In this document: in pieces, positions 1,360-42,954 of the stretch
Layout: every line of letters begins with the position of its first letter
Position numbering within the stretch: position 1 is the stretch's first letter
Source: Macrostomum lignano
Lineage: Eukaryota
DNA: 44,087 nucleotides
Direction of reading: 5' to 3'
NCBI GenBank assembly: GCA_002269645.1
Contig: NIVC01004498.1
Span: 1-44,087, forward strand
The notes under the pieces: model-generated
The model's input: the letters and a program-made list of their open reading frames with translations, nothing else
Database searches by the model: none
What the model was told of the DNA's origin: nothing
Program-made: the position numbers and the translations under genes

Positions 1360-4303
1360 TTAGAAAGGTGTCATTATAACAATAAAACTTTCTAAACGAT
1401 GTCTCAGCAGATGATTCGTTTTTTGCAATCGATGTTCGATGTTGCAATTAGGCAGCGAACCGCGAGCCAAATCGGCTTTAAACTGAGCCTCACACTTGGC
1501 CAGAAGCTCGGGCCCAGTCAGGATGTCAATGCCAGTCATGGCCAGGGCCTTGGCCTGAGCCAGAGTATACGGCTGGGCCTCCGGTAGGTTAACAAATCGT
1601 GTGAACTCCACGCTATGGTTGGGCGCGTCGCCGCCCATGTAGAACATGGGATGGATTGCCGGCACAGTGTAACTAACGTTGCCCATATCTGTTGAACCCG
1701 ACGGCAGTTCCGTGATGCCAACGTGTTCAACACCTAGAGCGGTCAGATTGGCGCTATAGGCAGCTCCGAGTGGCGCGTTGCAGATGACGCTGCTGTAGCC
1801 GCGGCTTATGTCCTCGATGCTGCATTCGCAGCCGGAGGCGACCGCGCCAGCCCGGAGGCAGGCTTCAACTCGAGCTCGGAGTACGGCCAGTTCGCGATCG
1901 CTAGGACAGCGGACGAAATAGTCTGACGAAATTGATGTTGAAAGAAACATTGTTTCGGATCGAAGCAGATTTAAGGTGTCAACTTCTAAACAATAACTAA
2001 AACGTAATACGTAATACGTCAAGAAAGCCATAGAATTTAAAGTGCAAGTTCAGCTTCAACCATGACAGATGGTTTCTGCATCAAGAGGCTTTAGCACCGC
2101 TTTGGCACCAAGAGGCTTTGGCACCAAGGGCCTTTAGCACCAAGGGGCTTTAGCACCAAGGGGCTTTAGCACCAAGGGGCTTTAGCACCAAGAGGCTTTA
2201 GCACCAAGAGGCTTTAGCACCAAGAGACTTTAGCACCAAGAGGCTTTAGCACCAAGGGGCTTTAGCACCAAGGGGCTTTAGCACCAAGGGGCTTTAGCAC
2301 CAAGAGGCTTTAGCACCAAGAGGCTTTAGCACCAAGATACTTTAGCACCAAGAGGCTTTAGCACCAAGGGGCTTTAGCACCAAGAGGCGAGGCTTTAGCA
2401 CCAAGAGGCTTTAGCACCAAGAGACTTTAGCACCAAGAGGCTTTAGCACCAAGGGGCTTTAGCACCAAGAGGCTTTAGCACCAAGAGGCTTTAGCACCAA
2501 GGGGCTTGGGCACCAAGAGGCTTTAGCACCAAAGGGCGCCAGCACCAAGGGGCGCCAGCACCAAGGGGCGCCAGCACCAAGGGGCGCCAGCACCAAGGGG
2601 CGCCAGCACCAAGGGGCGCCAGCACCAAGGGGCGCCAGCACCAAGGGGCGCCAGCACCAAGGGGCGCCAGCACCAAGGGGCGCCAGCACCAAGGGGCGCC
2701 AGCACCAAGGGGCGCCAGCACCAAGGGGCGCCAGCACCAAGGGGCGCCAGCACCAAGGGGCGCCAGCACCAAGGGGCGCCAGCACCAAGGGGCGCCAGCA
2801 CCAAGGGGCGCCAGCACCAAGGGGCGCCAGCACCAAGGGGCGCCAGCACCAAGGGGCGCCAGCACCAAGGGGCGCCAGCACCAAGGGGCGCCAGCACCAA
2901 GGGGCGCCAGCACCAAGGGGCGCCAGCACCAAGGGCGCCAGCACCAAGGGGCGCCAGCACCAAGGGCGCCAGCACCAAGGGGCGCCAGCACCAAGGGGCG
3001 CCAGCACCAAGGGGCGCCAGCACCAAGGGGCGCCAGCACCAAGGGGCGCCAGCACCAAGGGGCGCCAGCACCAAGGGGCGCCAGCACCAAGGGGCGCCAG
3101 CACCAAGGGGCGCCAGCACCAAGGGCGCCAGCACCAAGGGGCGCCAGCACCAAGGGCGCCAGCACCAAGGGGCGCCAGCACCAAGGGGCGCCAGCACCAA
3201 GGGGCGCCAGCACCAAGGGGCGCCAGCACCAAGGGGCGCCAGCACCAAGGGGCGCCAGCACCAAGGGGCGCCAGCACCAAGGGGCGCCAGCACCAAGGGG
3301 CGCCAGCACCAAGGGGCTTTAGGATCAAGGGCTTTAGGATCAAGGGGCTTTAGGATCAAGGGGCTTTAGGATCAAGGGGCTTTAGGATCAAGGGGCTTTA
3401 GGATCAAGGGGCTTTAGGATCAAGGGGCTTTAGGATCAAGGGGCTTTAGCACAAGGAAACAACAGGGGGCCTTACATCATCAGTATTCAATGGTAACTGC
3501 ACCATTTGACGTTCAGCAAACATTATTTTCAGCAGACAATTTAACAGAGTTACGTTGAATAACTTTTATCAAATCGACTCACCCAGCACAGCTCGCTCAG
3601 GGATGATATTGGGCCGCTGGCCGCCCTCCTTCACGATGCCGTGCACCCGCCACTCCGGCCGCATCTGCTGCCGCAAGTTCGACACGCTCTGGTAGGCCGT
3701 CACGGCCGCGTCAAGGGCGTTGAGGCCCTCCCAGGGCGAGCCGGCAGCGTGGGACGCCTTGCCGGTGTACGTTGCTCGGAGGAAAGCCACACTGAGGTGC
3801 GGCACGTGCACTGCCGTCAGCTTGTACGGGTGCGCCATGAGGGCCACGTCAACGTCTTTGAAGAAGCCGGCCTCAATAAAGTTGATCTTTCCGCCGTAGT
3901 GCTCCTCTGCCGGCGTCCCGAGCACCGTGACCCTGCCGGCCACGCCGCCCGCCTCCATGGCCGCCTTGATGCCCAGACCGGCACCCACCGCCACCTCGGC
4001 GATCAGGTTGTGTCCGCAGGCGTGCCCGATGCCCGGCAGAGCGTCGAACTCGCACATCACGGCGATGTGGGGCCGCCCGGCGCCAGCAGACCCGAACTCG
4101 GCCTTGAACCCGGTGTCCAGCACGAAGTGCCGCGTCACGCTGAAGCCCGACGACTCCAGCGTCTCCGTCAGCAGCTGGTGCGCCATTCGCTCCTCCAGCG
4201 CCAGCTCCGGGTTCTGCCACAGGCGGGAACTGACGCCGAGCAGCAGCTCGCGCGACTCGTCGATCTTGGCGGCCGCGACATCCTTCAGCTGCTGCGGATT
4301 CAT
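1360..4303 (-). CDS. PM20D2: M20 peptidase domain-containing protein 2-like dipeptidase, copy A (2 exons: 4303-3583, 1922-1360; about 427 aa)
   Basis: Motifs CEFDALPGIGHACGHNLIAE, GTPAEE, AHP, GSTDMGNVS and PAIHP. Phase-1 GT-AG intron 3582-1923 joins ERAVL-D-YFVRCP in frame. The C-terminal tail is about 30 aa longer than in copies B and C and is less certain. Confidence 0.9.
2088..3451. repeat. Intronic 16-bp minisatellite in three related blocks
   Basis: TTAGCACCAAG(A/G)GGCT (about 2088-2530), CCAGCACCAAGGGGCG (about 2531-3312), TTAGGATCAAGGGGCT (about 3313-3451). Confidence 0.97.
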
Positions 4304-7989: not shown

Positions 7990-9310
7990 GGTACCCAGGC
8001 CAAGCAGCGTCCCGGAGTCACTTGCGTTGTCCCAGAGTCGTTTCAGATGACATGGGTAAAATTGGAAAGAAGAGACTCCAAACGACTCTAAAACGACGAG
8101 ATGTCACGGTACAAGTCGCCAAAAGTCAGCAAAGAGTTATGCAAGAGTCATTTTAAAGCAGCATTATATTGTCCGCGACTTTGGGGCAACGCAAGTGACC
8201 AGCTGGGACGCTTTTACGACTCTGGGGGCCCCCGTAGAGTCGTATCTAGGGCGAGCTAGAGTCGTTTTAGAATCACTGAGTTGCGTCACATAGTAAAATA
8301 GAATCTTATTTCGCATTTATAACAACTCGATTGTCTATTTAGTGTACTAGACCCGTTAAAACGTTACCATGACAAGAATCGCTAAAGAGTCATTGCAAAC
8401 AACTCTCTAGTGACTTTAGTGACTCTGTGGCAACTCTGGTGACTTTTTAACGACTCAAACGACTGCAATGCGACGGAGAGGCGACTTTTGCGTTAGTTGC
8501 AGAACCGTAAAAGTGTTGGCGCTGAACTTTCTCTAGAGATGTGACTCTGATTCATCAAGTGACTCTATAGTGACTCTAGAACGTCTCAAACACGACTCTA
8601 CGGCCCCAGAGTCGTTTCAGGGTCGCAGGTAATAAAACGCTCCAAAGCGTTTTATTGGATTGGCGATTCTTGAGCGGCTTGACTTTTTGGCGGCTTGTAC
8701 CGTAATATCTTGTCGGTTTAGTCGTTTAGAGTCACTTCTTTCTTATTTTACCTGTGTCATCTGCAACAACTCTGAAACGAATATGGGGCGACGCAAGTGA
8801 CTCTGGGCCTAGGTGCTGTTCTCATCGGGTAGGCCAAGAAGCATCCCAGACTCAGTTGCTTCTCCCAGAGTTGTTTCAGAGTCAGTTTGTGCAGATAATA
8901 GATAAAATAAGAAAAAAGTGACCTCTAGACGACTCTAAAACGACGAGATGTCACGGTACAAGTCGCCAAAAAGTTGTAAAAGAGGCAGTCGCCTACGAGT
9001 GAGAGTCAATTTGAAGTGTTTTATTGTCTGCGACTCTGGGGCGACGCAAGTGACCTATGACGCTTTTAAAATGACACTGGGGCCGCAGAGTCAGATCTGA
9101 GGCGTGCTGGAGTCGCCGTAGAATCACTGAGTTGCGTCACTTAGTAAATTGAATCGACGTGTAGTGTACTTAGGTCAAACTCTGACACAACGACTCTTGG
9201 ACGGCTTTTTGCGAATCTTTTACAATTCTGCAACTGGTTTGAGCCTTATCTGTCGCACCACAGTCGTTTGAGTTGTTTGCAGTGACTCTAGCGATTCTGG
9301 TGACAGTAAC
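7990..9310. mobile_element. Cluster of a GACTC/GAGTC-rich dispersed non-autonomous repeat family in inverted and direct arrangement
   Basis: Segment about 8000-8290 recurs inverted at about 8550-8830 and direct at about 8830-9130. Segment about 8350-8520 recurs inverted at about 9170-9310, 11380-11580 and 24660-24790. Confidence 0.7.
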
Positions 9311-9394: not shown

Positions 9395-12317
9395 CTAAAA
9401 GTCCTTCAGCCTGGCCATATCGGCTCGAAAACCTTCCCAGATCTGTTCGAGCACGCCAGGCTGCGTCAGAATATCGATGCCAGTCATAGCCAGCGCCTTG
9501 GCCTGAGTCAGGGCGTGCGGCTGAGCAGCTGGGTCGCCAGCCAGCTCAGCAAAATCGCGTGTGTGAATAGCCGCCTGGCCACCAACTGAGAACATTGGAT
9601 GAACTGACGGCACCTCGTAGCTCACGTTGCCCATGTCTGTGGAGCCGATAACCGCATCTGGCTCTGATTCTAGGAAAGGCTCATTCAATCTGACCAAGTT
9701 CTTCGTGTAAAATTTAATCAAAGACTCGTTGGTTATCAAGTTACTGTTGGCGTGTCCGTTTATCTCGGACTGCCAACTGCAGCCAGTGGCGAGAGCGGCA
9801 GCGTCAAAGCAGGCATCCACTTTGCGACGCAAAACGGCGAGTTCTTTGTCTGTTGGAGCGCGGATGTAGTACTCTGCGGGAGAGCAGGTACATCTGGGAT
9901 AGGCAAACTTTCGTTTGGAGTGTCTATTTATCTGTTTGGATGATTGATTCGAACTTTAAAACGGCCCTTTTAGGGCTATTATCGCTTTGTGATTTTAACT
10001 GTAAAATGGCCTTTCTGGGACTCTACTTGCTTTGTGATTTTATATGCAAAGTGTAAATAAAAATTCCTAAATGTCGACAACTTCTAGAATGAAAACCCTG
10101 TAATGACAATCAAACTTAGAGGGGTTGGAAATATATGGTGCGCACTTGAAGCATTTAGTTTTGTAAATCAGGAAAACAGGGACTCTTTTATGTACTATGT
10201 CCAATGCATCTTGATGAGTCACCTGGTAAGACATTGACCGCGAGAGAGTGGCAACAGGTCAATTCCGCTGTGAAAGACTAACCGCCCTGATCTGAGGTAG
10301 AAATACAATGGGGCGCTTTTATACAAGACCTAAAAATCGCATCGCCGAAAGTCAAATTAGAACGGTCAATTCACAAGACCTGAACTTCACAAGACCTAAA
10401 CTTCACAAGATCCTAACTTCATAGGACCTAAACTTCACAGGACCTGAACTTCATAGGACCTAAATTTTACAAATCCAAAAACTTTACAAGACCTAACATT
10501 CACAGAACCTAAATTTCATAGACCCAAAACTTGACAGGACCTAAACTTCAGAGAAACTAAACTTCATAAGACCTAAACTGTATAGGACCTAAATTTCACG
10601 AGACCTATACATCACAGGACTTAGGATTCACATGGCTTTCTTTTTCTACTATTAGTAGGCAATGCTAGGCATGTAAGATTCGATAAAAATCAAAGGGACA
10701 TGACTTATTTTTAAACCGGATCATCGCGTACCCAGCACAGCTCGCTCAGGGATGATGTTGGGCCGCTGGCCGCCCTCCTTCACGATGCCGTGCACCCGCC
10801 AGTCCGGCCGCATCTGCTGCCGCAGGTTCGACACGCTTTGGTAGGCCGTCACGGCCGCGTCAAGGGCGTTGAGGCCCTCCCAGGGCGAGCCGGCAGCGTG
10901 GGACGCCTTGCCGGTGAAGGTGACGTCGAATGCCTGGATGCTAAGCGCACGCGGACGAGCCACAGTCAGCTTGTAGGGGTGCGCCATCATTGCGACGTCC
11001 ACATCGGTGAAGAATGCCGATCTGCACAGTGTTCAGCGGCGTGTGACATGCGCTTCTTAGTCGTTTAAACTTAAAGAGTCGTTTAAGCGTCATTGCAGTT
11101 GACATAAGTAAAATAGGAAAGAGTCTCTAAATGACTCTAAAACGATGAGATGTTCCGGTACAAGCCGTCAAAAAGTCATTAACGAGTCCGTCAAGATTCA
11201 TGAATTACCTTCAAGCATTTTATTGCCTCTAGGGCGACGCTGGAGCAACGTTATAACGACTCTGGGGTCGTAAAGTCGTGTTTGAGGCGTGCTAAAGTCG
11301 CTGTAGAGTCACTGAGTTGCGTTTGAAGCGCAATTGCATCGCATGATGAATTGAGCCGCATCTCTAGCAATAGTAAGCGCCAACACGATTCTTGTATGAC
11401 TCTTGCGCAACTCTTTTACGGTTCTGCAACTGACGTAACGCGCTAATTGTGACGCAAAAGTCGCCTCTCCGTCGTATTGCAGTCGTTTGAGTCGTCAAAA
11501 GTCACAAGAGTTGCCGCAAAATCACTAGCAATGGCTCTTTAGCGATTCTTGTCATGGTAACGTTTTTAACGGGAAAGTACGAGTAGCATTGCGATAGTAT
11601 CCGAATACAATGATAAAAACCATCGAGATTGAATTTCTTAGAATGTGCCGCTTCAAAAATAACACCAAGATTAAGTGTCCGAATTTTGCGCACACACTTC
11701 TTTTCCTGTCACAGTACCAGTATGTCATAACCTCTATGTTCTAAAACTATTATCGATAATTACTGTTTCTTATTAAAGTCATATAAATTCTTCACAACTC
11801 ACTGAACCAACAGAGCAAGATATATTACAGAGAAAATGCTATTGACTAGATTCCGTGCGTGGCCCCACCAAGTCTTAGTAGTCGCACCTGATCATGTCGA
11901 TCTTTCCGCCGTGTGCCTCCTCTGCCGGCGTCCCGAGCACCGTGACCCTGCCGGCCAGGCCGCCCGCCTCCATGGCCGCCTTGATGCCCAGACCGGCGCC
12001 CACCGCCACCTCGGCGATCAGGTTGTGTCCGCAGGCGTGCCCGATGCCCGGCAGAGCGTCGAACTCGCACATCACGGCGATGTGGGGCCGCCCGGCGCCA
12101 GCAGACCCGAACTCGGCCTTGAACCCGGTGTCCAGCACGAAGTGCCGCGTCACGCTGAAGCCTGACGACTCCAGCGTCTCCGTCAGCAGCTGGTGCGCCA
12201 TTCGCTCCTCCAGCGCCAGCTCCGGGTTCTGCCACAGGCGGGAACTGACGCCGAGCAGCAGCTCGTGCGACTCGTCGATCTTGGCGGCCGCGACATCCTT
12301 CAGCTGCGCGGCTCCAT
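9395..12317 (-). CDS. PM20D2: PM20D2-like dipeptidase, copy C (3 exons: 12317-11888, 11021-10732, 9873-9395), with an apparent 1-nt deletion at codon 4
   Basis: M20 motifs are intact. Splices KIDMI-R-SAFFTD and ERAVL-E-YYIRAP are in frame. The homologous ATG (ATG GAG CCG CG CAG CTG) is 1 nt out of frame, and the spliced length of 1199 nt is one short of 1200. Confidence 0.8.
10370..10625. repeat. Degenerate 16-bp intronic minisatellite
   Basis: Unit about CACAAGACCTAAACTT, roughly 15 copies. Confidence 0.85.
11070..11600. mobile_element. Copy of the GACTC-rich dispersed repeat inside the copy C-specific intron
   Basis: GACTCTAAAACGA.GAGATGT..CGGTACAAG.CG and GTCACTGAGTTGCGT match 8080-8290; CTTTAGCGATTCTTGTCATGGTAACGTTTT is the reverse complement of 8359-8390. 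Confidence 0.7.
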
Positions 12318-31259: not shown

Positions 31260-31972
31260 TGTGCATAGGTTGTTTATGGCCCAAGATATTGCAAGAATAC
31301 GCCAAGCAGATTTAGCAAGTGCAGCACAATAAAAAATCATCTATGCAGCAAACAAAAATCACCATGAATCTTAACAAGATGCCTGCACCAAGCAGATCTG
31401 CAAGGTGTTTAGCAGGTGGGGCTTGAATGACATCCTAAACTGCCTGGTTGCTGAGGATGAAAGCTGGCTCTACCTGGATGGCAAGGGCAGCAAAGCAGAC
31501 AATTGCTGCTGGCTAGGAGCTGGGGACTCTAGGGCAACTGTGACCAGAAAGTCCATCTTGGACTAGAAGACCATGCTGCTAGTAGCCTTCATGCCAAATG
31601 AACAAGTCTCCATCCGCACAACTCCATTGAACTTTGTCTGGCACAGTGGCGACCTCTGGCACACTCTCCAGTCAAATCCAATTTACCTAGACGAGGTTTT
31701 GTGGTAGATGGAAACCATATGGCTTCACACCTGAAGGCAGTTTCTAAATTTCTGCTTTATGGCAAGTGAATATGCTCTGACAGAGTCCCTACAGCTTGGA
31801 CTTCAACTTTTCCTGTTCCTGTTCAAGATTCCTGTTCAAATGGCTGAAAGCTGACTTTTCCAAGAAGAGTTTTGCAACCTACAAAGAGGTCAAACAGGCT
31901 GCATTGCACTGGTTATGGCAGTTGGAGGAAAAACATCTGTAGGCTGAGGTGGACAAGCTGTATGTGGTATAT
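31260..31972 (+). mobile_element. Second decayed mariner-like transposase remnant, ending at the LTR element insertion
   Basis: LVAEDESWLY (IVTGDETW-like) at 31444-31473, KTMLLVAF, SPYSLD and EVKQAALHWL. Confidence 0.7.
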
Positions 31973-32836
31973 TGTAGAGTGTTCTACCTCCCGTTAAAGG
32001 AGGAAAAAGGAAGATAATCGTATAATACTACTATAAGTAAGTAAGTACACGCATGTGCGCCTAAGCTTTGAATGAATCACGCTACCAGAAAAAGATGTTA
32101 CCAGAATAATACGCCATGAGCCATTTTCCCCTTTTAGCGCAACACGTGAATTGTCATGATACTATTTTGGATCAAAAACTTGTCTATAAATACAAGCGAT
32201 CTGAAGCGGTACCGGAGCCATTCTCCCCACGGAAGAGGAGCGCTCCGAAGAGGAAGCCTTAGGAGGACTTCCTGATCTACCAAGTCAATCGAGACTCGGT
32301 CGAGTTGTTGCGGTAAGCCTTCCTTATTTGCGCCCGTTGTGTTAGAGACGTCTCGCTCAAGTCTATTGAGACTTGAGTCTAATTGAGTCTGTTGAGACTC
32401 TTGAGTCTGTTTAGACTCCATTGGTTGCAGTCTCCAGAAGGACTGCCCCTGATAGATCTTAGAGGACTATCAGTGGTTTCCGGAGCTATACCTAGAGTGC
32501 ATAGAGGCACTGCTAGAAGAAGGAGGCTTAATTTAGACCGCAGTTTGGCGCAGGGTACCCATTGTTGCTACGAGGCCTCTGATTGGTCCTGACGGAAGAT
32601 ACCGGCCGGAAGAACTTATCAGAAGTACAAGAGGAACCAGGACCAGAGCAACTGAAGAATCAAGGCGCCTGATCTACGAGATCTACTGACAAGTTCCTAG
32701 CGAGAACTACTCAAGAAATTCAAATCCGGATTAAAGGTAATTGAATACCTTCGTTTGACTTACTGGGTTGCCTAGCTGTTGAGCTAGAAGTGATTGTTCC
32801 TTGATTATCGAAAGTCGGGTAATAAGGAACACATCA
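31973..32836 (+). repeat. 5' LTR (864 bp)
   Basis: TGTAGAGTG...CACATCA, directly repeated at 41718-42580. Confidence 0.97.
32185..32192 (+). promoter_or_regulatory. Candidate LTR TATA box
   Basis: TATAAATA about 210 nt into the LTR, followed by an ATG-free leader. Confidence 0.5.
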
Positions 32837-32838
32837 AT

Positions 32839-32856
32839 TGGTGATCTCGCCCTCTC
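32839..32856 (+). other. Primer binding site (possibly tRNA-Trp-like, imperfect)
   Basis: TGGTGATCTCGCCC two nt after the LTR end; TGG is complementary to the tRNA CCA. Confidence 0.6.
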
Positions 32857-33552
32857 GGCACTACTCAAACCTTGAGCAATAGCCTGGCCAAGCTATTGTA
32901 AAGTGACGACAGAGCGACTTCATTAATTTTGCGCGCACGTGTTAGAGTTAACACTTTTTAAGTCCGTTACGTTTTGAAACTCGAGTAAAATTTGGTGTAC
33001 AGGTTTGAGCACCTGTCAAATTTGAGTACAGTTTGAGCACGCGTGTTAAAATTTTGTTTTGACGAGCTCGAGCAAGTGTGAGTTTAAAACAAAACCGAAA
33101 TTAACTTCGTCGGTACACTGAAAACAAACCAAAAATAAAAAGAATCGTCGACGCAAAACAAACAAAAAATAACTGAAACATTTTGCCGGCACAAAAACTA
33201 AAACAAAACCGAAATTAATTGAAACTTCGTGGAGAGCAGAGTTAATTGACAAAAGAGAGAGAGTCAAAGAAGAGAAGAAAGACTTTGCAAAGCAAGAAGA
33301 CAAGTCCACTTCAACTTGAAGATACACTTTGCGGGACGCCGCATAAGTGCGAAATCAGCAAGCGAACAGAACAAGTTCATTTGAGGACAACCAGTGGCAG
33401 CAAGCCACACCGCATCCGAGGCCAGCGAATAACAAATCGACACCACAAGGCAATTCGTTACAGTCGAGGTTTATTCCGAGGCAAACACCACACTGGACGA
33501 TCCGTTACAAATCGATCCAGATCTTGAACTACCGTTCTACCCTATCAACAAC

Positions 33553-36183
33553 ATGGCGCGGCGCAATCCAACGGTACACAGAGACATCAAAGAAACGGTC
33601 GGTACTTTCTCGATGGAGAAAGATTTTAACACATTTGTCGACCATTTTGACCTGGTATGTAGGGAATACAACCTACAAAATCCAGAGAAGGCACAGCTGC
33701 TGCCACCTCTTCTCCAAGGTACTGCGCGAGAAATTTACGGCAAGCTGGATGCGGCAACACAGCAAAATTATCCAGCACTAATCATTCAACTGCGCGCGCA
33801 TTTCAACCGTTGCGGCACAAACAGATCAGTGCTGCTGCACAAGTTGCATAACAGAAGGATGCAAGCAACAGAATCCTTCCTCGCCTTTGTGGACGATATC
33901 CGCCAGATAATTAAGGCACTGCATCAGCCACCGCTGCAAGCTGCGGACCAACCACCACTGGGAGCGGCAGAATTGGCCGCCAGAGAAAGACAACGATTGA
34001 TGGATCGTGAACAAAACCTCATCCTGCACGTAATAAACAACGCACAGCCGTCACTTCGGGATAGACTTTTGCGTGAAAATATCGAAACCGAAGAAGACCT
34101 TTTGCGTTGCGGAATGCAATGGGAAGCCAGTGCCCCATTAATGACGACAGGCAACAATGAAGTGCAGAAACTGACGCAGCAACTAAACAAGTTAATGCAG
34201 CACCAGACAGCTGCTATCGCCGAACAAAAAAGACGAAATGAACAAGCCTCAGCCAGATGTTACTACTGCGGACAAGAAGGACATTATCAGATTAATTGTC
34301 CTCATTGGTCAACAAGATACGACAAGCCGCGACAGATATTCAACAATCAGAAGCCGCAGAAACCATGGCAGCAATATCAAAATCGCCAACAACAAGGCAT
34401 AAGACGCTTCGGAAATGATAGACGCTTCGGAAATAATGACCGCTCCGGAAATGATGGCCGCTTCGGAAACGAAGGCCGCTTCAGAAGTAATGGCTACAGG
34501 CCACGCAACGTCAGATACACACAAAGACAGCCGACGCAAGCAATGCCACGATACGCGAATGCCATCACGTACACACCGGAAAATGAACAGCAAGAACAGC
34601 AAGTGTTCACAATTGACGACTTGGAAATGGACTTCACAGTCCCGGAACTTGACATCAGCTTGATCGAAAAGAAGACGACGCACGAGGACAACACTGACAA
34701 CACAGAAGAGACGAATGAAACCGAAATGATCAAATTAAAAGAGACCACCGGAGACAGCAGAGAAAACAGGAAGAAAGTAAATCACAAGACAAGGGAGGAG
34801 GCGGAGAGCGACATCGGCAACGAAGAAAAGATGAAAACCGGCGAAGAAAACAACTATGAATCGACAACAGTGGATGACGACAAAACGAGCATGAAAGACA
34901 AAGAAATGAAAGAAGAAGAAGAATGTAGAAGTTACGGCAACGACCACGACTGCGAGGTGCGTGATGACACGAACGACTACCAAGCCGAAAGAGGAATGCA
35001 GGAAGAACCGAGAGCGGAGAATCTAAGTTCCGACAGCGATCAAGGCTACGAAATACAATGGAAAGATGAAGAAATGGAAAAAGAACAGGTGAAAGAAAAG
35101 CCGAGTTCCGACAGCGACGAATGCTACGAGATCCGATACAAACGAAATGGTGAAGCCTATATTCAAACGGTCGACTACAAGACAGAGAAAAGATACCAAA
35201 CGCAATGGAGTGAAACAACGGAAACATCGGAAGAAGCTGCAGACGAAGATAATGAAATAACCAAAAAGCAAAGCGAATCAGAAGCCTTCCGCCTGGATCA
35301 GCCAATGGAACAACCGAAAGAATATGATGCGGACATGGAAGATAACGAATGGCGATCGCAGCCAATGCCAGCAAGGACAACGGCAAAATCCAAGAAGTGG
35401 AAAAACTGGCTATTCTGGATCATCGTGATACTACTGATAGCAGTAGTCGCCAAAGCAACGGCAACGGAAAAGCCAATTCCAATGATTTGTCCAACGGATG
35501 CGCATATCCAACCGATGATCTACAAGATACCAACCGACATCAAATGCAGTTACTTCAAGACAAACCAGACAAAACCAAAGAAGATTACACTCGATCTCTA
35601 CAAGGCTAACATCAAGAAGCATCGACAACACGGGATAGTATGCTTCAGAGACAAGCACCTGGTGGAAAAAGTTTGGCGCGGACAATGGAACCGGATCCGA
35701 TTTAAACAACATGAGCTACATGTGTCGCACGCGGAATGCCTACAATGGAATCAAACACTATTTTCAAAGGATGGTGAACTGGAACCAGATGAGAAGGTCG
35801 GCAACGCACAGCTGTTCAGAACAAAGAATTCAGCCAACGGTCGATATATTCACTTCTTCGGAAAATGGAAAGAATATATGGCACGCAACAGCTACTTGAT
35901 CAGAAATATTCCATTCTACTACAATCCGTACGAGAAAATGGAATCGTTACAGCTGCAACTAAGCGAATGTCGATACAGTGAAGGATGGTGTCCAACGCCG
36001 ATTCTACGGAAGGAAGAACTACACAGTCTACCACTGAGTCCAACATATCATCAAGACTATCGATGGCAGATTGAGCACAGAGCACAATCACACTATGAGG
36101 AACCGTACAAATCACGACAATATTTCTTCGCATGGAAAGTAGAGCCGGAAATTGACTGCAAGCTTCAAAAGTATCACAAGTGA
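33553..36183 (+). CDS. gag: Gag (capsid-like, CCHC knuckle) + acidic spacer + internal signal peptide + N-terminal half of Env
   Basis: Ty3-type Gag, CYYCGQEGHYQINC at 34258-34299, basic-hydrophobic-AxA segment KSKKWKNWLFWIIVILLIAVVAKATA at about 35386-35463, then a Cys-rich ectodomain. Confidence 0.9.
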   Translation: MARRNPTVHRDIKETVGTFSMEKDFNTFVDHFDLVCREYNLQNPEKAQLLPPLLQGTAREIYGKLDAATQQNYPALIIQLRAHFNRCGTNRSVLLHKLHNRRMQATESFLAFVDDIRQIIKALHQPPLQAADQPPLGAAELAARERQRLMDREQNLILHVINNAQPSLRDRLLRENIETEEDLLRCGMQWEASAPLMTTGNNEVQKLTQQLNKLMQHQTAAIAEQKRRNEQASARCYYCGQEGHYQINCPHWSTRYDKPRQIFNNQKPQKPWQQYQNRQQQGIRRFGNDRRFGNNDRSGNDGRFGNEGRFRSNGYRPRNVRYTQRQPTQAMPRYANAITYTPENEQQEQQVFTIDDLEMDFTVPELDISLIEKKTTHEDNTDNTEETNETEMIKLKETTGDSRENRKKVNHKTREEAESDIGNEEKMKTGEENNYESTTVDDDKTSMKDKEMKEEEECRSYGNDHDCEVRDDTNDYQAERGMQEEPRAENLSSDSDQGYEIQWKDEEMEKEQVKEKPSSDSDECYEIRYKRNGEAYIQTVDYKTEKRYQTQWSETTETSEEAADEDNEITKKQSESEAFRLDQPMEQPKEYDADMEDNEWRSQPMPARTTAKSKKWKNWLFWIIVILLIAVVAKATATEKPIPMICPTDAHIQPMIYKIPTDIKCSYFKTNQTKPKKITLDLYKANIKKHRQHGIVCFRDKHLVEKVWRGQWNRIRFKQHELHVSHAECLQWNQTLFSKDGELEPDEKVGNAQLFRTKNSANGRYIHFFGKWKEYMARNSYLIRNIPFYYNPYEKMESLQLQLSECRYSEGWCPTPILRKEELHSLPLSPTYHQDYRWQIEHRAQSHYEEPYKSRQYFFAWKVEPEIDCKLQKYHK

Positions 36184-36416
36184 AGGAGGACTACTGTCGA
36201 ATACGTTTTTGGCAAAGCAGGAGACTTGGCCTTGACGTTTCAAAAGAAGCCGGTTGAACAGGAACTCAAATGCAAGGATACGGACAAGACGCTATTCATC
36301 TCGGAGCAAGAAATACCAGTCTACGTGAAGGATGGTGACAAACAAACCTTCTGGCAATCATAAACGGAACATATCAGCAACAAGAGAGACAACGACGCGA
36401 CATAGAATGTCCACGA
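36184..36416 (+). pseudogene. env: Env middle segment bridging the two ORFs (after the in-frame TGA; frameshift near 36335)
   Basis: Frame 1 continues RRTTVEYVFGKAGDLALTF...C...LFISEQEIPVYV. Frame 3 is open from 36339 (QTNLLAIINGTYQQQERQRRDIECPRL) into the 36417 ORF. Confidence 0.75.
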
Positions 36417-39400
36417 TTGGTGTCAAACCGACTGCTGTCAGCAAAGATCACGGCGCTGGATCACAACCTGCATAACCAGCTTAACCACTTACATCGGTCA
36501 CTGGTCCAGCTAACTTGCAAAATGCACGCAATCAACTTAAATTATGCCAGACAAAACTACTATGTCAACCCTACGATGACTTTTCGTAAAATCACCGGAA
36601 TGACGAACGTTTTGGCAGTTCCAATATACGAGCATCTGTTGATATACAAGTGCACGCCGATACAGCACTTTAACATCTTGCCGTCAAACACGTCAACAAC
36701 CTGCTACGATAAGCCAAGGATTGAAGCGTTCTACGAAGGAAAACGAATTCAGGGATTCTTGGACACGGTACACAACATCATCGTTGGCACCGCAATACCG
36801 AGACCTTGCACCACGGCAGTAAACTACTATCAACTGGACAATGCACTACACGTCATCAAAACAACTGGAACGACAGCAAACGTCACAGAACCGGAAGTAA
36901 TCGTCGACGAAAACTACGACATGGAGGATTTGAAAATCCGATTCAACAGAACGAAGTATACGCCATTCGCCGATATCCAACTTGACGAGATAACACCAGG
37001 ATGGACGATCAACGACTTCTTGCAAGCGTTCATCACCCAACGCAAGATGATTCACCAGCTGTTCACAAGAAAGGACAAAGGAACCGGGACAGGAAGATTT
37101 CCCGTCCTTGTTTCAATGGACAGCGCCATCAAATCATTTTGGACAAATAGCTTCTGGGAGCTGCTCAATGGAAGAGGCAGTCTCTATCAAGGATTCATCT
37201 TCTACGGTGCTTGCATTGTGTGGATTGTCACGGCAATCTTCATCATTTCATCGATCGTACGGTGCTTCAGTCAAACTTGTCCAAGAGCTAAGAAGACAGT
37301 GAATGCCATAATGCAAAGAACGACAACGGAAAGCGACAACAGTTTAGAACTAACAGAAACTGCACATTGTGAGGTTCAAGGGCAACCGACACTAGCAACG
37401 CGGCTATATCCATCGATTCCGACAACACCAACGGCACCAAGGATACAACCACCCAACTATCAAGCAGAACAGCACGAGCCAAAATGGCCGGAAAACTACG
37501 TCTGTACGCTACACGCCGAGATTGGCAAAGCAATGGCTCAGGTCATTGTCAACAACTTGCCATGTCGAGCACTACTGGATTCAGGCAGCTCGATCACAGT
37601 CATCTCGCAACAATTATGCAACAAGCTACGACTCGCGGTACGACCAGCAGCAATCGCAGTTGCAGGAGCAGGAGGACATTCACTCAACATCCTAGGAAAA
37701 GCAGATATCGACTTGAAAATTGCTAATAAACAGCTGACGGTCCCGACGTACATCATCGACAGACTACCAAACCAAGACGTCATCGTTGGAATCGACACGT
37801 TCAAGCAGCTTCAACTACCATTGACCTTCGACTTCAACAAGCAAACGTTTAGGATCGACACGGTGGAGCAACCGCTGATCAACCAGATTCGAGTACTACC
37901 GAAAGTAACTCTGCAGCAAGATGTCATTATCCAGCCTGAAAGCGCATGCTGGGTCAGAGCGAAAACGACCAGCGCGGCAGATGAAGCAATGATATTTGAT
38001 CCACACAGGAGAGTCACGGCAAAACATCAAATCATGATGCCTACGGCACTAGTGCTGGTTGCAAAGGATAAGCAACTGCCAGTACAAATCTTCAACCCGA
38101 ACACAGAAACGGTTCATCTACGACAAGGAATGTGCATCGGTCATCTCAACACCCAAGCATCGGTTATGCTGATTGAACAAGCGACTCCACGACTAACAGA
38201 GGAAGAATTTCAAAAGAAGATCAATTTGGATGACAGCCCGATTACGGAACAGCAAAAGAGGAAAGTTCGACAGCTGTTGTGGAAGTACAACGAAGCCTTC
38301 TGCCATCATGATTACGACATCGGACGAGCCAAGGACATCAAACAGGAAATCAAACTTCTGCCGCACACGGAACCAATTCAGTGCAAGCCGTACCCGATCG
38401 CCAAGCATCTGCAACAACACTTTGACGAAATCATCGATAAAATGCTAAAGCACGGCATCATCAGCAAAGCTATTTCGGCTTACTCCTCACCGTGCCTACT
38501 GGTACAGAAGAAGGAGACAAACGAAAGACGACTCGTATGCGACTTCAGACTGTTGAACAAGTACATACCGACGGATCAGCAAAGCCTACCGAAGATCTCC
38601 GAACTACTAGCAAAGCTCAACACGGCAAAATTGTTCACGGTGTTCGACCTACGTCATGGATTTTGGCAAATTGAAATCGAGAAAGAGTCACGACAGTACA
38701 CGGCTTTCAAAACCTACAATGGACAAGTATACGAGTACAATCGATCGCCGATGGGACTTAGCAACAGCCCAGCAACGATGAGTCGACTAACAGCATACAT
38801 GCTAGCAGGATGCACGAACCTGCTGCACTATGTCGACGACATTTTAGCCTACGGAGAGGATTTCGAGCGACTCTACGAAGCTACGGAGAAGGCCCTAGCG
38901 CTCATTCAACGCCAAGGTCTGAAGCTACAACCAACTAAATGCAAATTCTTCCGAGACAACGTGCGTTACCTGGGACATCAGGTGACAGCCAAAGGAATCT
39001 CACCGGACCCAGACAACGTGGAAAAGGTGAAGAAGTTTCCTACGCCAACCAGTATAACGAAGGTCCAATCATTCCTTGGACTTGCGCAATACTTCAGGAA
39101 GTTCTTACCTAACTTCGCAAAGACAGCAAAGCCACTGTACGACCTGCTCAAGTTCGACAAATGGAAGCAAGACAACTGGACACAGAGACAACAGGAAAGT
39201 TTCGACGAAATCAAACGACAGCTGACATCAGACGCACTGCTACAGCATCCGGACTTCGACAAGCCCTTCATCATCGAGACAGACGCCTCAGGAACGGGAC
39301 TCGGAGCAGTCCTACTACAGGAAACCGAGGACAAGAAGGAACGACCTATTGCTTACGTCAGTCGAGCACTCAAACCAAATGAGACAAAGTGGTCAGCTAC

Positions 39401-41042
39401 GGAACGAGAGCTACTAGGAGTCTTGTTCGCCCTGCGACAGTTTCATTACTACATCTATGGTTCTCCAATACAGACGATAGTACGCACGGATCATGCACCA
39501 TTGACCTACGTCGTAACTACAAAAGGACAGACCAACAACCGACTCATCAGGATGACACTCAAGATCCAGGATTACAACTACAAACTCGTCTACAAACCAG
39601 GAATTACCAACAAAGCCGCGGACGCCCTGTCAAGAGCCTATGAAGTCAACGCCATTCATCCAATCCCTAACATCAAGGAGTTGGTGGATGAAACCGAGCG
39701 CGACAACTTCTACCAAGCGGTTAAAGACGACGACAAGAACATCAAACTCAGTCCCATGGAACGAAAATTCCTACGCAAGCAACGACAACACCTAACAATC
39801 AATAAGTCACGGCTCTACTGGATGAGCGACAATAAACCCAAGATCTACATACCATATTCGTTTCGGCAAGCAATTCTCAACGAGCTACACGACAACCCAC
39901 TCGCTGGACACCTGTCGGCAGCAAAGACCATCGCGAGAGTGGAACAATACTACTTTTGGCCAACTATGTACGGCGACATCAAGCAGTATTGCAACAACTG
40001 CCATTCATGTGCTGCATCAAAGACAGGACGACGACAGAAACCGCAGCTACAGTCCATTCCGAAGTCGACTACAATGGACTGTCTAAGCATCGACATCACC
40101 GGACCGCTACCACCGAGCTGTCTCCAGGGCATCGCCTACACCTACATTCTAACCGCCTTGGATATCTTCTCGAAGTTTGCTATCGCCATACCGATACCGG
40201 ACATCACAGCTCAGACAGTGGCAATGAGTTTCTTCAACGAAATCATTTGCAAGTACGGCACGCCGAAGAACCTCACATCGGACAACGGATCGCAGTTTAC
40301 ATCGCAACTGTTTCAGCAAGTCGTAAGGATTCTCAACATTACGCAGATCTACACATCGACCTACAATCCGAAGGCAAACATGGTTGAACGGTTTCACCGC
40401 AACCTGCACGAGATGATTACACATTTCGCGCACCAACAGCCGGAAGACTGGATCATCTACCTGCAATCTGTAACAATGGCCTACAACAGCGCTATTCATC
40501 GATCAACGGACAATACGCCATTCTTCCTAATGTTTGGACGAGACTTCCAACCGCCGAATCTGCTCGCACAGCAATTGCTACCATCGCAGTACGTGGAAGT
40601 ACCGACTTCCATTCAGAAATTCGTCACGCAACTACACCTCGCATGGAAGATCGCCAAGCACAACATTGACAACCAGGTGGCTCTGACCACCGGCAACGAC
40701 GCGAGATCGACAACCCTGACGGCCGGCGACATCGTCTACCTACACTACCCGCCACAGCAGACGCATAAACATGCACAGAAGTACAAAGGACCCTATCGAG
40801 TGGTCCAACTAACGTCACCAACAACGGCACGCCTGGCTAATGTACAAGATCCACATCAGCACCAGTTCTACGTACACATTCATCGACTAAAGAAGATCAA
40901 CACTGACACAGCGACGTTTCTACCGACATTAGACAACGCTGATCGCACGCGTTCAACGAACCGCCACATCGCGACGAAGCACGAGGAGACTCAAACGACA
41001 GATGTGAGCCAGCCACATGGCTACAACCTACGACCACGCTAG
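36417..41042 (+). CDS. pol: C-terminal Env (coiled coil, TM) fused to Pol (protease, RT, RNase H, integrase)
   Basis: TM FIFYGACIVWIVTAIFIISSIV at 37194-37259, LLDSGS at about 37572-37589, YVDD at 38829-38840, IETDASG, HDNPLAGH...CHSC, IDITGP/DNGS/VERFHR and GPY. Confidence 0.97.
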   Translation: MVSNRLLSAKITALDHNLHNQLNHLHRSLVQLTCKMHAINLNYARQNYYVNPTMTFRKITGMTNVLAVPIYEHLLIYKCTPIQHFNILPSNTSTTCYDKPRIEAFYEGKRIQGFLDTVHNIIVGTAIPRPCTTAVNYYQLDNALHVIKTTGTTANVTEPEVIVDENYDMEDLKIRFNRTKYTPFADIQLDEITPGWTINDFLQAFITQRKMIHQLFTRKDKGTGTGRFPVLVSMDSAIKSFWTNSFWELLNGRGSLYQGFIFYGACIVWIVTAIFIISSIVRCFSQTCPRAKKTVNAIMQRTTTESDNSLELTETAHCEVQGQPTLATRLYPSIPTTPTAPRIQPPNYQAEQHEPKWPENYVCTLHAEIGKAMAQVIVNNLPCRALLDSGSSITVISQQLCNKLRLAVRPAAIAVAGAGGHSLNILGKADIDLKIANKQLTVPTYIIDRLPNQDVIVGIDTFKQLQLPLTFDFNKQTFRIDTVEQPLINQIRVLPKVTLQQDVIIQPESACWVRAKTTSAADEAMIFDPHRRVTAKHQIMMPTALVLVAKDKQLPVQIFNPNTETVHLRQGMCIGHLNTQASVMLIEQATPRLTEEEFQKKINLDDSPITEQQKRKVRQLLWKYNEAFCHHDYDIGRAKDIKQEIKLLPHTEPIQCKPYPIAKHLQQHFDEIIDKMLKHGIISKAISAYSSPCLLVQKKETNERRLVCDFRLLNKYIPTDQQSLPKISELLAKLNTAKLFTVFDLRHGFWQIEIEKESRQYTAFKTYNGQVYEYNRSPMGLSNSPATMSRLTAYMLAGCTNLLHYVDDILAYGEDFERLYEATEKALALIQRQGLKLQPTKCKFFRDNVRYLGHQVTAKGISPDPDNVEKVKKFPTPTSITKVQSFLGLAQYFRKFLPNFAKTAKPLYDLLKFDKWKQDNWTQRQQESFDEIKRQLTSDALLQHPDFDKPFIIETDASGTGLGAVLLQETEDKKERPIAYVSRALKPNETKWSATERELLGVLFALRQFHYYIYGSPIQTIVRTDHAPLTYVVTTKGQTNNRLIRMTLKIQDYNYKLVYKPGITNKAADALSRAYEVNAIHPIPNIKELVDETERDNFYQAVKDDDKNIKLSPMERKFLRKQRQHLTINKSRLYWMSDNKPKIYIPYSFRQAILNELHDNPLAGHLSAAKTIARVEQYYFWPTMYGDIKQYCNNCHSCAASKTGRRQKPQLQSIPKSTTMDCLSIDITGPLPPSCLQGIAYTYILTALDIFSKFAIAIPIPDITAQTVAMSFFNEIICKYGTPKNLTSDNGSQFTSQLFQQVVRILNITQIYTSTYNPKANMVERFHRNLHEMITHFAHQQPEDWIIYLQSVTMAYNSAIHRSTDNTPFFLMFGRDFQPPNLLAQQLLPSQYVEVPTSIQKFVTQLHLAWKIAKHNIDNQVALTTGNDARSTTLTAGDIVYLHYPPQQTHKHAQKYKGPYRVVQLTSPTTARLANVQDPHQHQFYVHIHRLKKINTDTATFLPTLDNADRTRSTNRHIATKHEETQTTDVSQPHGYNLRPR

Positions 41043-41162
41043 AGTTTAGAGAACAACCCCGTGTAGTGACCGGGATAAAGAATAGCACTACAGCTTCGCA
41101 AGCTTGTCGTAAAAGGCGACTAATCCGAGCGACACAAAGACAGCGACAAATTGACGACAATT

Positions 41163-41537
41163 ATGGGCAACGCACTGTCAAAACAGGCGCCCCAGCCTCA
41201 GCAGCTATATGACTGCCCGATATGTTTAACTGATGACTTGGCTGTCAAGCCACCGACTATTTGCATCAACGAACATAAAGTTTGCGGACAATGTTTAAGC
41301 GATTCACATTATATTCAGCCATGGCAGAATTGTCCCCTCTGTAGAGATAGTTTGCGACAATGTGCCTATTGTTATTCTTGGCGCACGTTTCAATATTGTA
41401 ACCACCAACATTTTATTTGCATGCACTGTTTGAAGCAAACCGCTAGTAGGGGCGTTATAGGATGCCCCTTATGTAATAGTATGCCGCGAGACTGCACGTT
41501 TCGAAAGTGGTGTCGGATCAAACCTGATGCCACTTGA
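41163..41537 (+). CDS. Accessory tandem C3HC4 RING protein with a predicted N-myristoylation signal (124 aa)
   Basis: MGNALSK; RING1 CPIC..CINEHKVCGQC..CPLC; RING2 CAYC..CNHQHFICMHC..CPLC. Confidence 0.85.
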   Translation: MGNALSKQAPQPQQLYDCPICLTDDLAVKPPTICINEHKVCGQCLSDSHYIQPWQNCPLCRDSLRQCAYCYSWRTFQYCNHQHFICMHCLKQTASRGVIGCPLCNSMPRDCTFRKWCRIKPDAT

Positions 41538-41702
41538 TGTCTACGCGATATTCGAGTTTTGACCGCAATATGTACTGAAAAGTTTTTAGAGTTTTGACCA
41601 AACCCTCGCTTCACTAGACGCGCACAAAATCAATTGTTTATTTCCTATATTAACTGATCACCACAGAATTTTATTGTTAAAACTCGGGACGAGTTTTTTC
41701 GT

Positions 41703-41714
41703 AAAAAAGGGAGA
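41703..41714 (+). other. Polypurine tract
   Basis: AAAAAAGGGAGA three nt before the 3' LTR. Confidence 0.85.
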
Positions 41715-41717
41715 TTT

Positions 41718-42580
41718 TGTAGAGTGTTCTACCTCCCGTTAAAAAAGGAAAAAGAAGATAATCGTATAATACTACTATAAGTAAGTAAGTACACGCATGT
41801 GCGCCTAAGCTTTGAATGAATCACGCTACCAGAAAAAGATGTTACCAGAATAATACGCCATGAGCCATTTTCCCCTTTTAGCGCAACACGTGAATTGTCA
41901 TGATACTATTTTGGATCAAAAACTTGTCTATAAATACAAGCGATCTGAAGCGGTACCGGAGCCATTCTCCCCACGGAAGAGGAGCGCTCCGAAGAGGAAG
42001 CCTTAGGAGGACTTCCTGATCTACCAAGTCAATCGAGACTCGGTCGAGTTGTTGCGGTAAGCCTTCCTTATTTGCGCCCGTTGTGTTAGAGACGTCTCGC
42101 TCAAGTCTATTGAGACTTGAGTCTAATTGAGTCTGTTGAGACTCTTGAGTCTGTTTAGACTCCATTGGTTGCAGTCTCCAGAAGGACTGCCCCTGATAGA
42201 TCTTAGAGGACTATCAGTGGTTTCCGGAGCTATACCTAGAGTGCATAGAGGCACTGCTAGAAGAAGGAGGCTTAATTTAGACCGCAGTTTGGCGCAGGGT
42301 ACCCATTGTTGCTACGAGGCCTCTGATTGGTCCTGACGGAAGATACCGGCCGGAAGAACTTATCGGAAGTACAAGAGGAACCAGGACCAGAGCAACTGAA
42401 GAATCAAGGCGCCTGATCTACGAGATCTACTGACAAGTTCCTAGCGAGAACTACTCAAGAAATTCAAATCCGGATTAAAGGTAATTGAATACCTTCGTTT
42501 GACTTACTGGGTTGCCTAGCTGTTGAGCTAGAAGTGATTGTTCCTTGATTATCGAAAGTCGGGTAATAAGGAACACATCA
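41718..42580 (+). repeat. 3' LTR (863 bp)
   Basis: About 4 differences from the 5' LTR seen by eye. Confidence 0.97.
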
Positions 42581-42954
42581 ATATGCGCATATAAAGTATA
42601 TTTCATTTCACACACATTGGCCATAGACACTGCTTCTATTAACCCTGCGTTCTAAAGCTAATATAAGGAGAGCAAATATAAAGGAAATGAATGTTAACAT
42701 CGGCATGGCAAGAGCCCGCTACCAAGCTTGAGATTACTAACTATAATTCACCTAGACTTTGAGTTGGTAACGGAAGTTGGATGTAACACTGTATGAGCAC
42801 TGCCAAAGGGTGATTGATATTGGGGGATTCTATGTTGTTGAGTGGTATAGTTTTCTTCATTAGCGATTGCAAGTTTGTCTGCTTTCACATCAGTGACATT
42901 ACTTATGACACACGCGAAGTAATAGATATTCCCCTCAAATAGAAAATATTTTTA

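Follow-up and report, generated by a model that had tools for sequence, protein, structure and literature searches.

A Ty3/gypsy element of Macrostomum lignano with a predicted class III, gB-like envelope encoded between gag and pol

Retroelements of the GAG-ENV-POL type with a gB-type env have been published for nematodes, bryozoans and flatworms, and the same work describes gB-type ectodomains with a membrane segment on either side (Chary and Hayashi, eLife 2026, PMC13524379). The non-canonical endogenous retroviruses of nematodes are cited there as metaviruses in which env likewise precedes pol, though in a host of another phylum (Sacco et al. 2022, PMID 35550022, cited in PMC13524379). The Atlas virus of hookworm (Belpaoviridae) includes env within a single polyprotein of 2828 aa (10.64898/2026.03.22.711591); that env differs in being of class II, at the C-terminal end and in a BEL/Pao element. 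A literature search on gag-env-pol retrotransposons returned PMC13524379 only, while none was found for the gag-env-pro-pol order or for a Macrostomum LTR retrotransposon with an envelope; passages of PMC12801592 make no mention of env.

The window analysed here, i.e. the 44,087 nucleotides of contig NIVC01004498.1 from M. lignano, holds a complete Ty3/gypsy LTR element at 31973-42580, in the order gag-env-protease-RT-RNase H-integrase (Table 1). LTRs, primer-binding site, polypurine tract and target-site duplication are of the Metaviridae type, the Pfam domains of pol follow the Ty3/gypsy order, and the Pao peptidase A17 was not among the matches listed in the Pfam scan of the element; the gag region additionally matched DUF1759 below cut-off (E 1.4e-4). 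With env sitting between gag and pol, this is probably a recently inserted element of the GAG-ENV-POL type, endowed with a class III (gB-like) env and expressed as one polyprotein. Regarding the family, it is very probably the published Platyhelminthes_Rhabditophora_Mlig_errantivirus_2, as compared by primer site, LTR length and LTR spacing, since the corresponding table row (PMC13524379) lists an identical 12-nt primer site, LTRs of 864 bp, a spacing of 9727 vs. 9745 here, and 16 copies. Gene order, gB-type env and Ty3/gypsy pol are shared with the gB-type errantiviruses, but the window copy is broken, unlike the published entry. A public protein labelled M. lignano in UniRef (P0052) is 99.5% identical to the C-terminal frame of the window over 1488 aa. 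In PMC13524379, the terms "polyprotein", "fused" and "RING" have no match in the main text, the env of Mlig_errantivirus_2 is not among the modelled envs of Supplementary file 4, and two env motifs of the window element were not found in the supplements searched.

Table 1. Features of the element in the window.
Feature	Position	Strand	Basis or remark
Left target-site duplication, ATAT	31969..31972	.	Sequence; right copy 42581-42584
5' LTR, TG...CA, 864 bp	31973..32836	+	861 of 865 aligned columns identical to 3' LTR
Primer-binding site, 12-mer, starts TGG	32839..32850	+	Reverse complement equals PBS in PMC13524379 Supplementary file 1, row 1445
gag from first ATG, one CCHC zinc knuckle (about 34258-34305)	33553..34570 (end approximate)	+	Pfam zf-CCHC E 2.8e-4
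Acidic, fast-evolving gag/env linker, in frame	34571..35385 (start approximate)	+	Translation; dN/dS
Internal segment resembling a signal, with a basic patch, a hydrophobic core and small residues	35386..35466	+	First of two hydrophobic stretches; putative cleavage
env N-terminal half, region of gB-like domains I and II	35467..36180	+	Translation, profile, model; stop at 36181 in window copy
Candidate fusion loop 1, VWRGQW	35671..35688	+	Model hairpin tip, strands 49-68/71-81; aligns at EBV gB loop 1
Candidate fusion loop 2, YIHFFGKW	35845..35868	+	Model loop before strand 133-149; aligns at EBV gB loop 2
Divergent, broken env patch: stops 36181 and 36361 in upstream frame, frame change	36123..36498	+	Copy comparison
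Furin-type motif RQRR	36387..36398	+	Aligns with EBV gB RRRRR
env C-terminal half, with a long central helix (about 36426-36566), a beta-rich crown and a stem	36399..37190	+	Pfam PF24664 E 3.6e-6; sister-model helix 322-368
Transmembrane anchor	37191..37259	+	Second hydrophobic stretch; then Cys at 37263 and 37278
Aspartic protease, in frame past env tail	37539..37796	+	Pfam Asp_protease_2 E 7.5e-10
Reverse transcriptase and RNase H	38505..39575	+	Pfam RVT_1 E 2.9e-28, RT_RNaseH_2 E 2.7e-37
Integrase (H2C2, core), up to stop codon	39849..41042	+	Pfam Integrase_H2C2 E 1.1e-20, rve E 3e-14
Accessory 124-aa Cys-rich RING-like ORF, myristoylation-like start MG-x-x-x-S	41163..41537	+	Pfam zf-RING_2 E 0.003, below cut-off
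Polypurine tract	41703..41714	+	Sequence
3' LTR, 863 bp	41718..42580	+	LTR comparison

Sister copies are open over a single frame of some 2500 aa, and open frames above 2400 aa occur in 16 of the 144 matches in the searched genome (G000). Seven excised loci (L013, L015, L017-L021) have the motifs of the knuckle, env, protease, RT and integrase in one frame. Among 51 public representatives, nine combine knuckle, env and protease in a single protein and 14 hold one of the two junctions, the 28 with neither being mostly short pieces; one representative (P0050) is a Pao-type element where a related env comes after the integrase. Word-indexed protein searches found just 1 and 2 proteins.

The class III, gB-like fold put forward in the first-pass annotation is supported as a prediction by four routes, namely family profile, Pfam, ESM Atlas and predicted structure. 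Against the sequences of solved structures, all 25 rows listed for the family profile are herpesvirus gB, the best being EBV gB (E 4.5e-17), with a match that covers both env halves (positions 10-428), brings the two aromatic loops onto the EBV gB fusion-loop positions, and the furin motif onto RRRRR; the two candidate loops of the annotation are present and, as a prediction by position, bipartite as in gB. Pfam PF24664 (Monjiviricetes_fusion) reached 25.7 bits on the C-terminal half in the window (E 3.6e-6) and 24.3-24.5 bits on sister copies, below the 27-bit cut-off that five of 19 public relatives scanned did pass; among 34 alignment members, 21 match it at E 0.01 or better and three match the herpesvirus gB family PF00606, for which neither the window nor the sister protein gave a Pfam match. 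In the ESM Atlas, 8/8 rows shown belong to class III families, with a low recognition score. The model of env from an unbroken sister copy (pLDDT 81.7, pTM 0.60) shows a gB-like domain architecture with a long central helix, and its comparison by Foldseek, as the annotation had advised, retrieved postfusion KSHV gB (E 1.1e-21, TM 0.45), while VIA aligned 423 residues to postfusion gB (Z 12.7, rmsd 8.8). As the Foldseek overlays have a TM of 0.39-0.45 and an rmsd of 12-16 Å, the likeness lies in the domains and their order rather than in a close overlay, and the model may lean on gB learned by AlphaFold. From a single sequence, AlphaFold gave an unusable model (pLDDT 32.6), and searching solved structures with each env half retrieved no gB, i.e. 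0 hits and 6 weak unrelated ones (E 0.12-0.29).

Compared with herpesvirus gB (EBV, KSHV, HSV), the likeness comprises the domain order, the two fusion loops, the furin site before the central helix and the cysteine pattern of the C-terminal half; identity is 9-17%, the ectodomain is shorter (571 aa) and lies inside a retroelement polyprotein, and the element is without a gH/gL-type partner. Glycoproteins of Monjiviricetes and related negative-strand viruses (PF24664; chu-, nyami-, xinmo- and rhabdo-like), as well as the chuvirus-like G of mosquito BEL/Pao elements, are matched through Pfam on the C-terminal half, Atlas and BFVD, but below the Pfam cut-off, at 9-14% identity and with no family standing out. 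While the PDB matches listed (part of 114) are all gB, Atlas and BFVD place rhabdo- and GP64-like clusters lower. Midway nyavirus G is among the top named BFVD matches of the window-family env; the non-canonical nematode elements reportedly carry a nyamivirus-like env within a gag-env-pro-pol frame that is continuous. The scores do not point to any one viral donor, as they fall within E 1e-23 to 1e-12 for glycoproteins of nyamivirus, herpesvirus, entomopoxvirus, chu-like and rhabdo-like kinds alike.

The motifs annotated for 35386-37259 are all at the places given, and that range is read in two frames in the window copy. The C-terminal series paralleling gB was recovered in full (LTCKM 36510, NPTMTF 36567, CYDKPR 36702, GFLDT 36753), together with the cysteines following the anchor and the six sequons (NQT 35563, NQT 35749, NGT 36363, NTS 36687, NVT 36879, NRT 36945). 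Taken by themselves, sequon count and furin motif mean little: the 571-aa sister ectodomain holds 6 sequons, where shuffles average 3.7 (P 0.16), and a single R-x-K/R-R at any position arises in 21% of 5000 shuffles. It is conservation, not motif counts, that exceeds chance, with R-x-K/R-R retained in 39/51 aligned relatives covering the linker. The 12 ectodomain cysteines are near-invariant, none of them being absent from more than one of the 36-52 rows that cover it in the alignment of 55. Besides, env is under purifying selection, with a dN/dS of 0.04-0.09 in two copy pairs, similar to protease and integrase; the gag/env linker is the highest of seven regions (0.30-0.40). The 63%-identical family L017 was left out of this comparison, as dS was saturated in six of the seven regions. 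The gB-type ectodomain lies between the only two hydrophobic stretches of a 2538-aa sister polyprotein (residues 655-681 and 1253-1285), and the signal-like segment precedes env in 9/9 loci inspected by eye, where a nearby start Met is not conserved.

From this layout, the element would make a single Gag-Env-Pol polyprotein crossing the ER membrane twice, a two-pass topology considered likely. The Gag part would be produced in the cytosol, and the first hydrophobic segment would act as an internal signal directing the ectodomain to the lumen of the ER, the site of its glycosylation and of the formation of six disulfides. The second segment would halt transfer, so that protease, RT and integrase would be cytosolic again, initially tied to the env tail. 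Signal peptidase would then release the env N-terminus, the element protease would free the Gag and Pol parts, and furin would cleave ahead of the central helix. On an enveloped particle, the two aromatic loops of trimeric Env would enter the target membrane and refolding would fuse the membranes, which would let the element pass between cells. LTR elements usually make Gag in excess; unlike this, the route gives Gag, Env and Pol at 1:1:1, and may therefore involve an additional step at the level of RNA or recoding. No env-skipping joint was seen in contigs from four public runs, which cannot prove absence.

The unusual equality of Gag and Pol amounts also speaks for a separate RNA, spliced or subgenomic, from which the class III env would be expressed beginning with a Met before the signal; Gag and Pol would then come from other RNAs, and the single frame would be a matter of DNA layout. 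A Met does stand ahead of the signal segment in two loci (L013 and L019), and in the window's subfamily at 35365, seven codons ahead of the basic patch, so a separate env start would be possible there; it is not a conserved feature in the other loci inspected, and both junctions stay in open frame in distant relatives, which makes this origin of Env unlikely. Less probable still, an env of class III fold could mainly anchor Gag and Pol to a membrane, or offer them a platform for assembly, within one cell rather than serve entry into another. This would agree with the few aromatic loop residues of some distant families, loop 1 having a single aromatic residue in 6/7 distant loci of the same genome, and env transmission is unproven for most such elements (PMC13524379); yet the whole ectodomain, with its 12 cysteines, furin site and both loops, is kept under purifying selection, and an anchor would need none of these.

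In the window copy, the N-terminal half (frame of 33433) stops within env, whereas the C-terminal half reads in a different frame, open from 36339. The surrounding patch has 46 mismatches and 13 gap columns relative to nine of the 14 other copies compared, against at most 7 differences per 500 bases between copies elsewhere. Being broken inside env, this copy is unable to make env, or Pol by the polyprotein route. Programmed recoding, with the stop and the frame change at 36180-36360 serving to set protein ratios, is scarcely credible and largely refuted. Two copies (L002 and L012) do have most of the divergent patch in common with the window and are likewise broken in it, but in different ways; the nine copies, identical over the patch, are open through it, contigs from the four public runs do not agree with the window where the first break lies, and the break falls within the ectodomain. 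As for a chance resemblance to gB in a region that is no class III fusogen, the sequon and furin counts and the poor single-sequence model would allow it, but it is refuted, with next to no probability left, by the concordance of Atlas, gB profile, PF24664/PF00606 member matches, sister model, Foldseek, BFVD and VIA.

Beyond the polyprotein, the RING-like ORF has 145 matches in the searched genome and its Atlas rows are RING clusters; a literature search on RING accessory ORFs found no report of such a gene, yielding an irrelevant review, and "RING" is absent from passages of PMC5408684. A quite unlikely extension is that of an enveloped metavirus infectious from cell to cell and built from the two-pass Gag-Env-Pol chain, where Gag and Pol would be recruited attached to Env and the small, putatively myristoylated RING protein would act as an arenavirus Z-like matrix or budding helper; this role is a lead suggested by the MG start, the RING pattern and an Atlas score of 0.87.

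Since gB-type env in gypsy elements and the GAG-ENV-POL order are already known (published 2026), and very probably the family too, the element has little weight as a discovery. What is added is small, namely an env structure model with its fusion loops mapped, the finding that env is under purifying selection, an argument for one polyprotein from its two-segment topology, and the accessory RING gene. If right, the polyprotein route would be an unusual form of assembly for an enveloped retroelement particle. Were the cell-to-cell infectious metavirus real, its assembly route could be studied directly, as the flatworm is amenable to transgenesis and carries near-identical copies.

Regarding the envelope protein (env) encoded at 35386-37259, the first-pass annotation proposed a class III fusogen of the gB/chuvirus type, an interpretation supported by a profile comparison with solved gB sequences, by an AlphaFold model and by the Foldseek and VIA-align matches of this model. 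All the env motifs it listed were located at the positions given, including RQRR in the linker between the two env halves and the cysteines beyond the membrane segment; the furin motif and six sequons are indeed present, yet by themselves not beyond chance (P 0.16 for the sequon count, and a lone furin motif in 21% of shuffles). A single-sequence search of solved structures with env found nothing of gB type, and the Pfam PF24664 scan of the window protein scored under the family cut-off. Scanning all 1.84 billion representatives provided 51 public relatives, 25 of which were aligned with nine genome loci into a profile; against solved-structure sequences, the 25 matches listed were all herpesvirus gB (best E 4.5e-17, both halves covered). 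The two aromatic loops, proposed as fusion-loop candidates, fall at the EBV gB loop positions, loop 1 opposite HR of the EBV construct and loop 2 opposite RVEA, both being substitutions introduced at the EBV fusion loops; the family's basic motif aligns with RRRRR, the furin site of EBV gB (PMC12859058). Loop 1 is aromatic-poor in six of seven distant loci.

From a 55-row alignment (10 loci and 45 of 52 proteins), the ectodomain of the sister copy, an unbroken copy of the window's element, was modelled by AlphaFold with a pLDDT of 81.7 and a pTM of 0.60, and displays a central helix of 47 residues and a hairpin with loop 1 at its tip. The best solved Foldseek match is postfusion KSHV gB (E 1.1e-21, TM 0.45, rmsd 12.6) and VIA-align against HSV-2 gB gives a Z of 12.7 (423 aligned, rmsd 8.8), both being loose overlays. 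ESM Atlas matches agree with the class III reading, with low recognition flagged. The predicted viral structures that score highly include nyamivirus, herpesvirus, entomopoxvirus, chu-like and rhabdo-like glycoproteins, so that these models allow no viral donor to be named.

None of the 12 ectodomain cysteines is missing from more than one of the rows that cover it, and the linker motif R-x-K/R-R is retained in 39 of 51 rows. The env dN/dS (0.09 and 0.04 for locus L013 vs. L018, 0.08 and 0.08 for L013 vs. L019) resembles that of protease and integrase and differs from the gag-env linker (0.30-0.40); at the sequence level, env function is judged to be maintained across the family. Along the L013 vs. 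L018 pair, dS ranges from 0.03 (gag) to 0.85 (protease), a sign of mosaic recombination between subfamilies. In four distant families (L021, L022, L025 and L029), an insertion of about 200-270 aa lies between the env halves around the furin site, with a basic motif on either side of it in L022.

The sister polyprotein (2538 aa) contains only two hydrophobic stretches, flanking the ectodomain on either side, which is the topology required if a single chain is to place env in the ER lumen with Gag and Pol cytosolic, the probable arrangement. In 9/9 loci inspected, the first of these stretches resembles an internal signal peptide, with no conserved start Met; it would direct the ectodomain into the lumen, the Gag and Pol portions staying in the cytosol. 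By analogy with class III proteins and viral polyproteins in general, cuts by signal peptidase, furin and the element's protease would follow, then env trimer formation, budding and membrane fusion. Production of env from a spliced RNA is a live alternative; contigs of four public runs, which could miss such a joint, display none skipping env, and none of the runs is catalogued as RNA. Regarding the single chain, knuckle, env and protease occur within one protein in 9 of the 51 public relatives. Sacco et al. (2022) are reported to have found a single frame in nematode endogenous retroviruses. Among env relatives, P0006 carries a NADAR domain (E 8.5e-16) upstream of env in the same protein; aspartic-protease matches are unusual in place or number in P0016, with one ahead of env, and in P0031, with two motifs after it.

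The window's LTR element is complete, with a target duplication ATAT flanking the LTR pair and a purine tract ahead of the 3' LTR; the LTRs being identical in 861/865 aligned columns, the insertion is judged to be young. Directly after the gag knuckle, four 18-nt repeats (34405-34494) encode an R-F-G-N-type repeat, possibly an RNA-binding low-complexity tract.

Positions of features of the LTR element in the window
Feature	Position	Strand	Basis or location
5' LTR	31973-32836	+	sequence
3' LTR	41718-42580	+	sequence
Primer site	32839	+	sequence
Accessory Cys-rich RING-like ORF	41163-41537	+	inside element

Reading from 33433, the window's copy runs into a stop at 36181; the remainder lies in a different frame, open from 36339. 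In the genome searched, 16 of 144 matches to the env N-terminal half lie within open frames >2400 aa. Over 36000-36560, nine of 14 other copies are mutually identical with env open throughout, two have much of the window's divergent patch in common yet break differently, and three belong to other subfamilies. The copy comparison points to damage, not design. Since contigs from four public runs disagree with the window at the first break, this break is private to the copy or else an assembly error. Outside the patch, window and sister copy never differ by more than 7 columns in 500 bases. The short patch itself (36123-36498) is partly common to L002 and L012, the rest of the element being nearly identical to the main subfamily, which suggests that it arose by recombination with another subfamily or that the assembly is faulty at this place.

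The RING-like ORF has 145 matches in the genome; its myristoylation-like start is retained in L013, L018 and L019 and was not seen in L017. In several sister copies it is longer, with a second RING ORF behind. Several element or RING-ORF matches cluster on contigs C2121, C1130 and C87, perhaps as tandem arrays or transposon clusters. Elsewhere, minisatellite arrays are densely packed in window positions 1-27000, their units measuring 16, 20-24, 23, 29, 32, 36 and 43 nt. A dispersed repeat of 300 nt has three copies there (at 3788, 5692 and 11803), and inverted repeats lie at 8344-8721 and 11137-11580.

A published survey describes env of gB type from across the animals and, for nematodes, bryozoans and flatworms, the gene order GAG-ENV-POL; its Supplementary file 1 contains a flatworm element with an 864-bp LTR, a spacing of 9727 and the same primer site as the window's element (PMC13524379). 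P0052, a public protein sharing 99.5% identity with the C-terminal frame of the window, bears in UniRef the species name of this published element; the window's element and the published one very probably belong to one family. The window element's sequence was not found in the supplements searched (in one of the searches, among 30 of 58 places), and the family's env is absent from the list of modelled envs. The element type is already known; what remains of interest is the putative one-chain, two-pass assembly route, together with the accessory RING gene.
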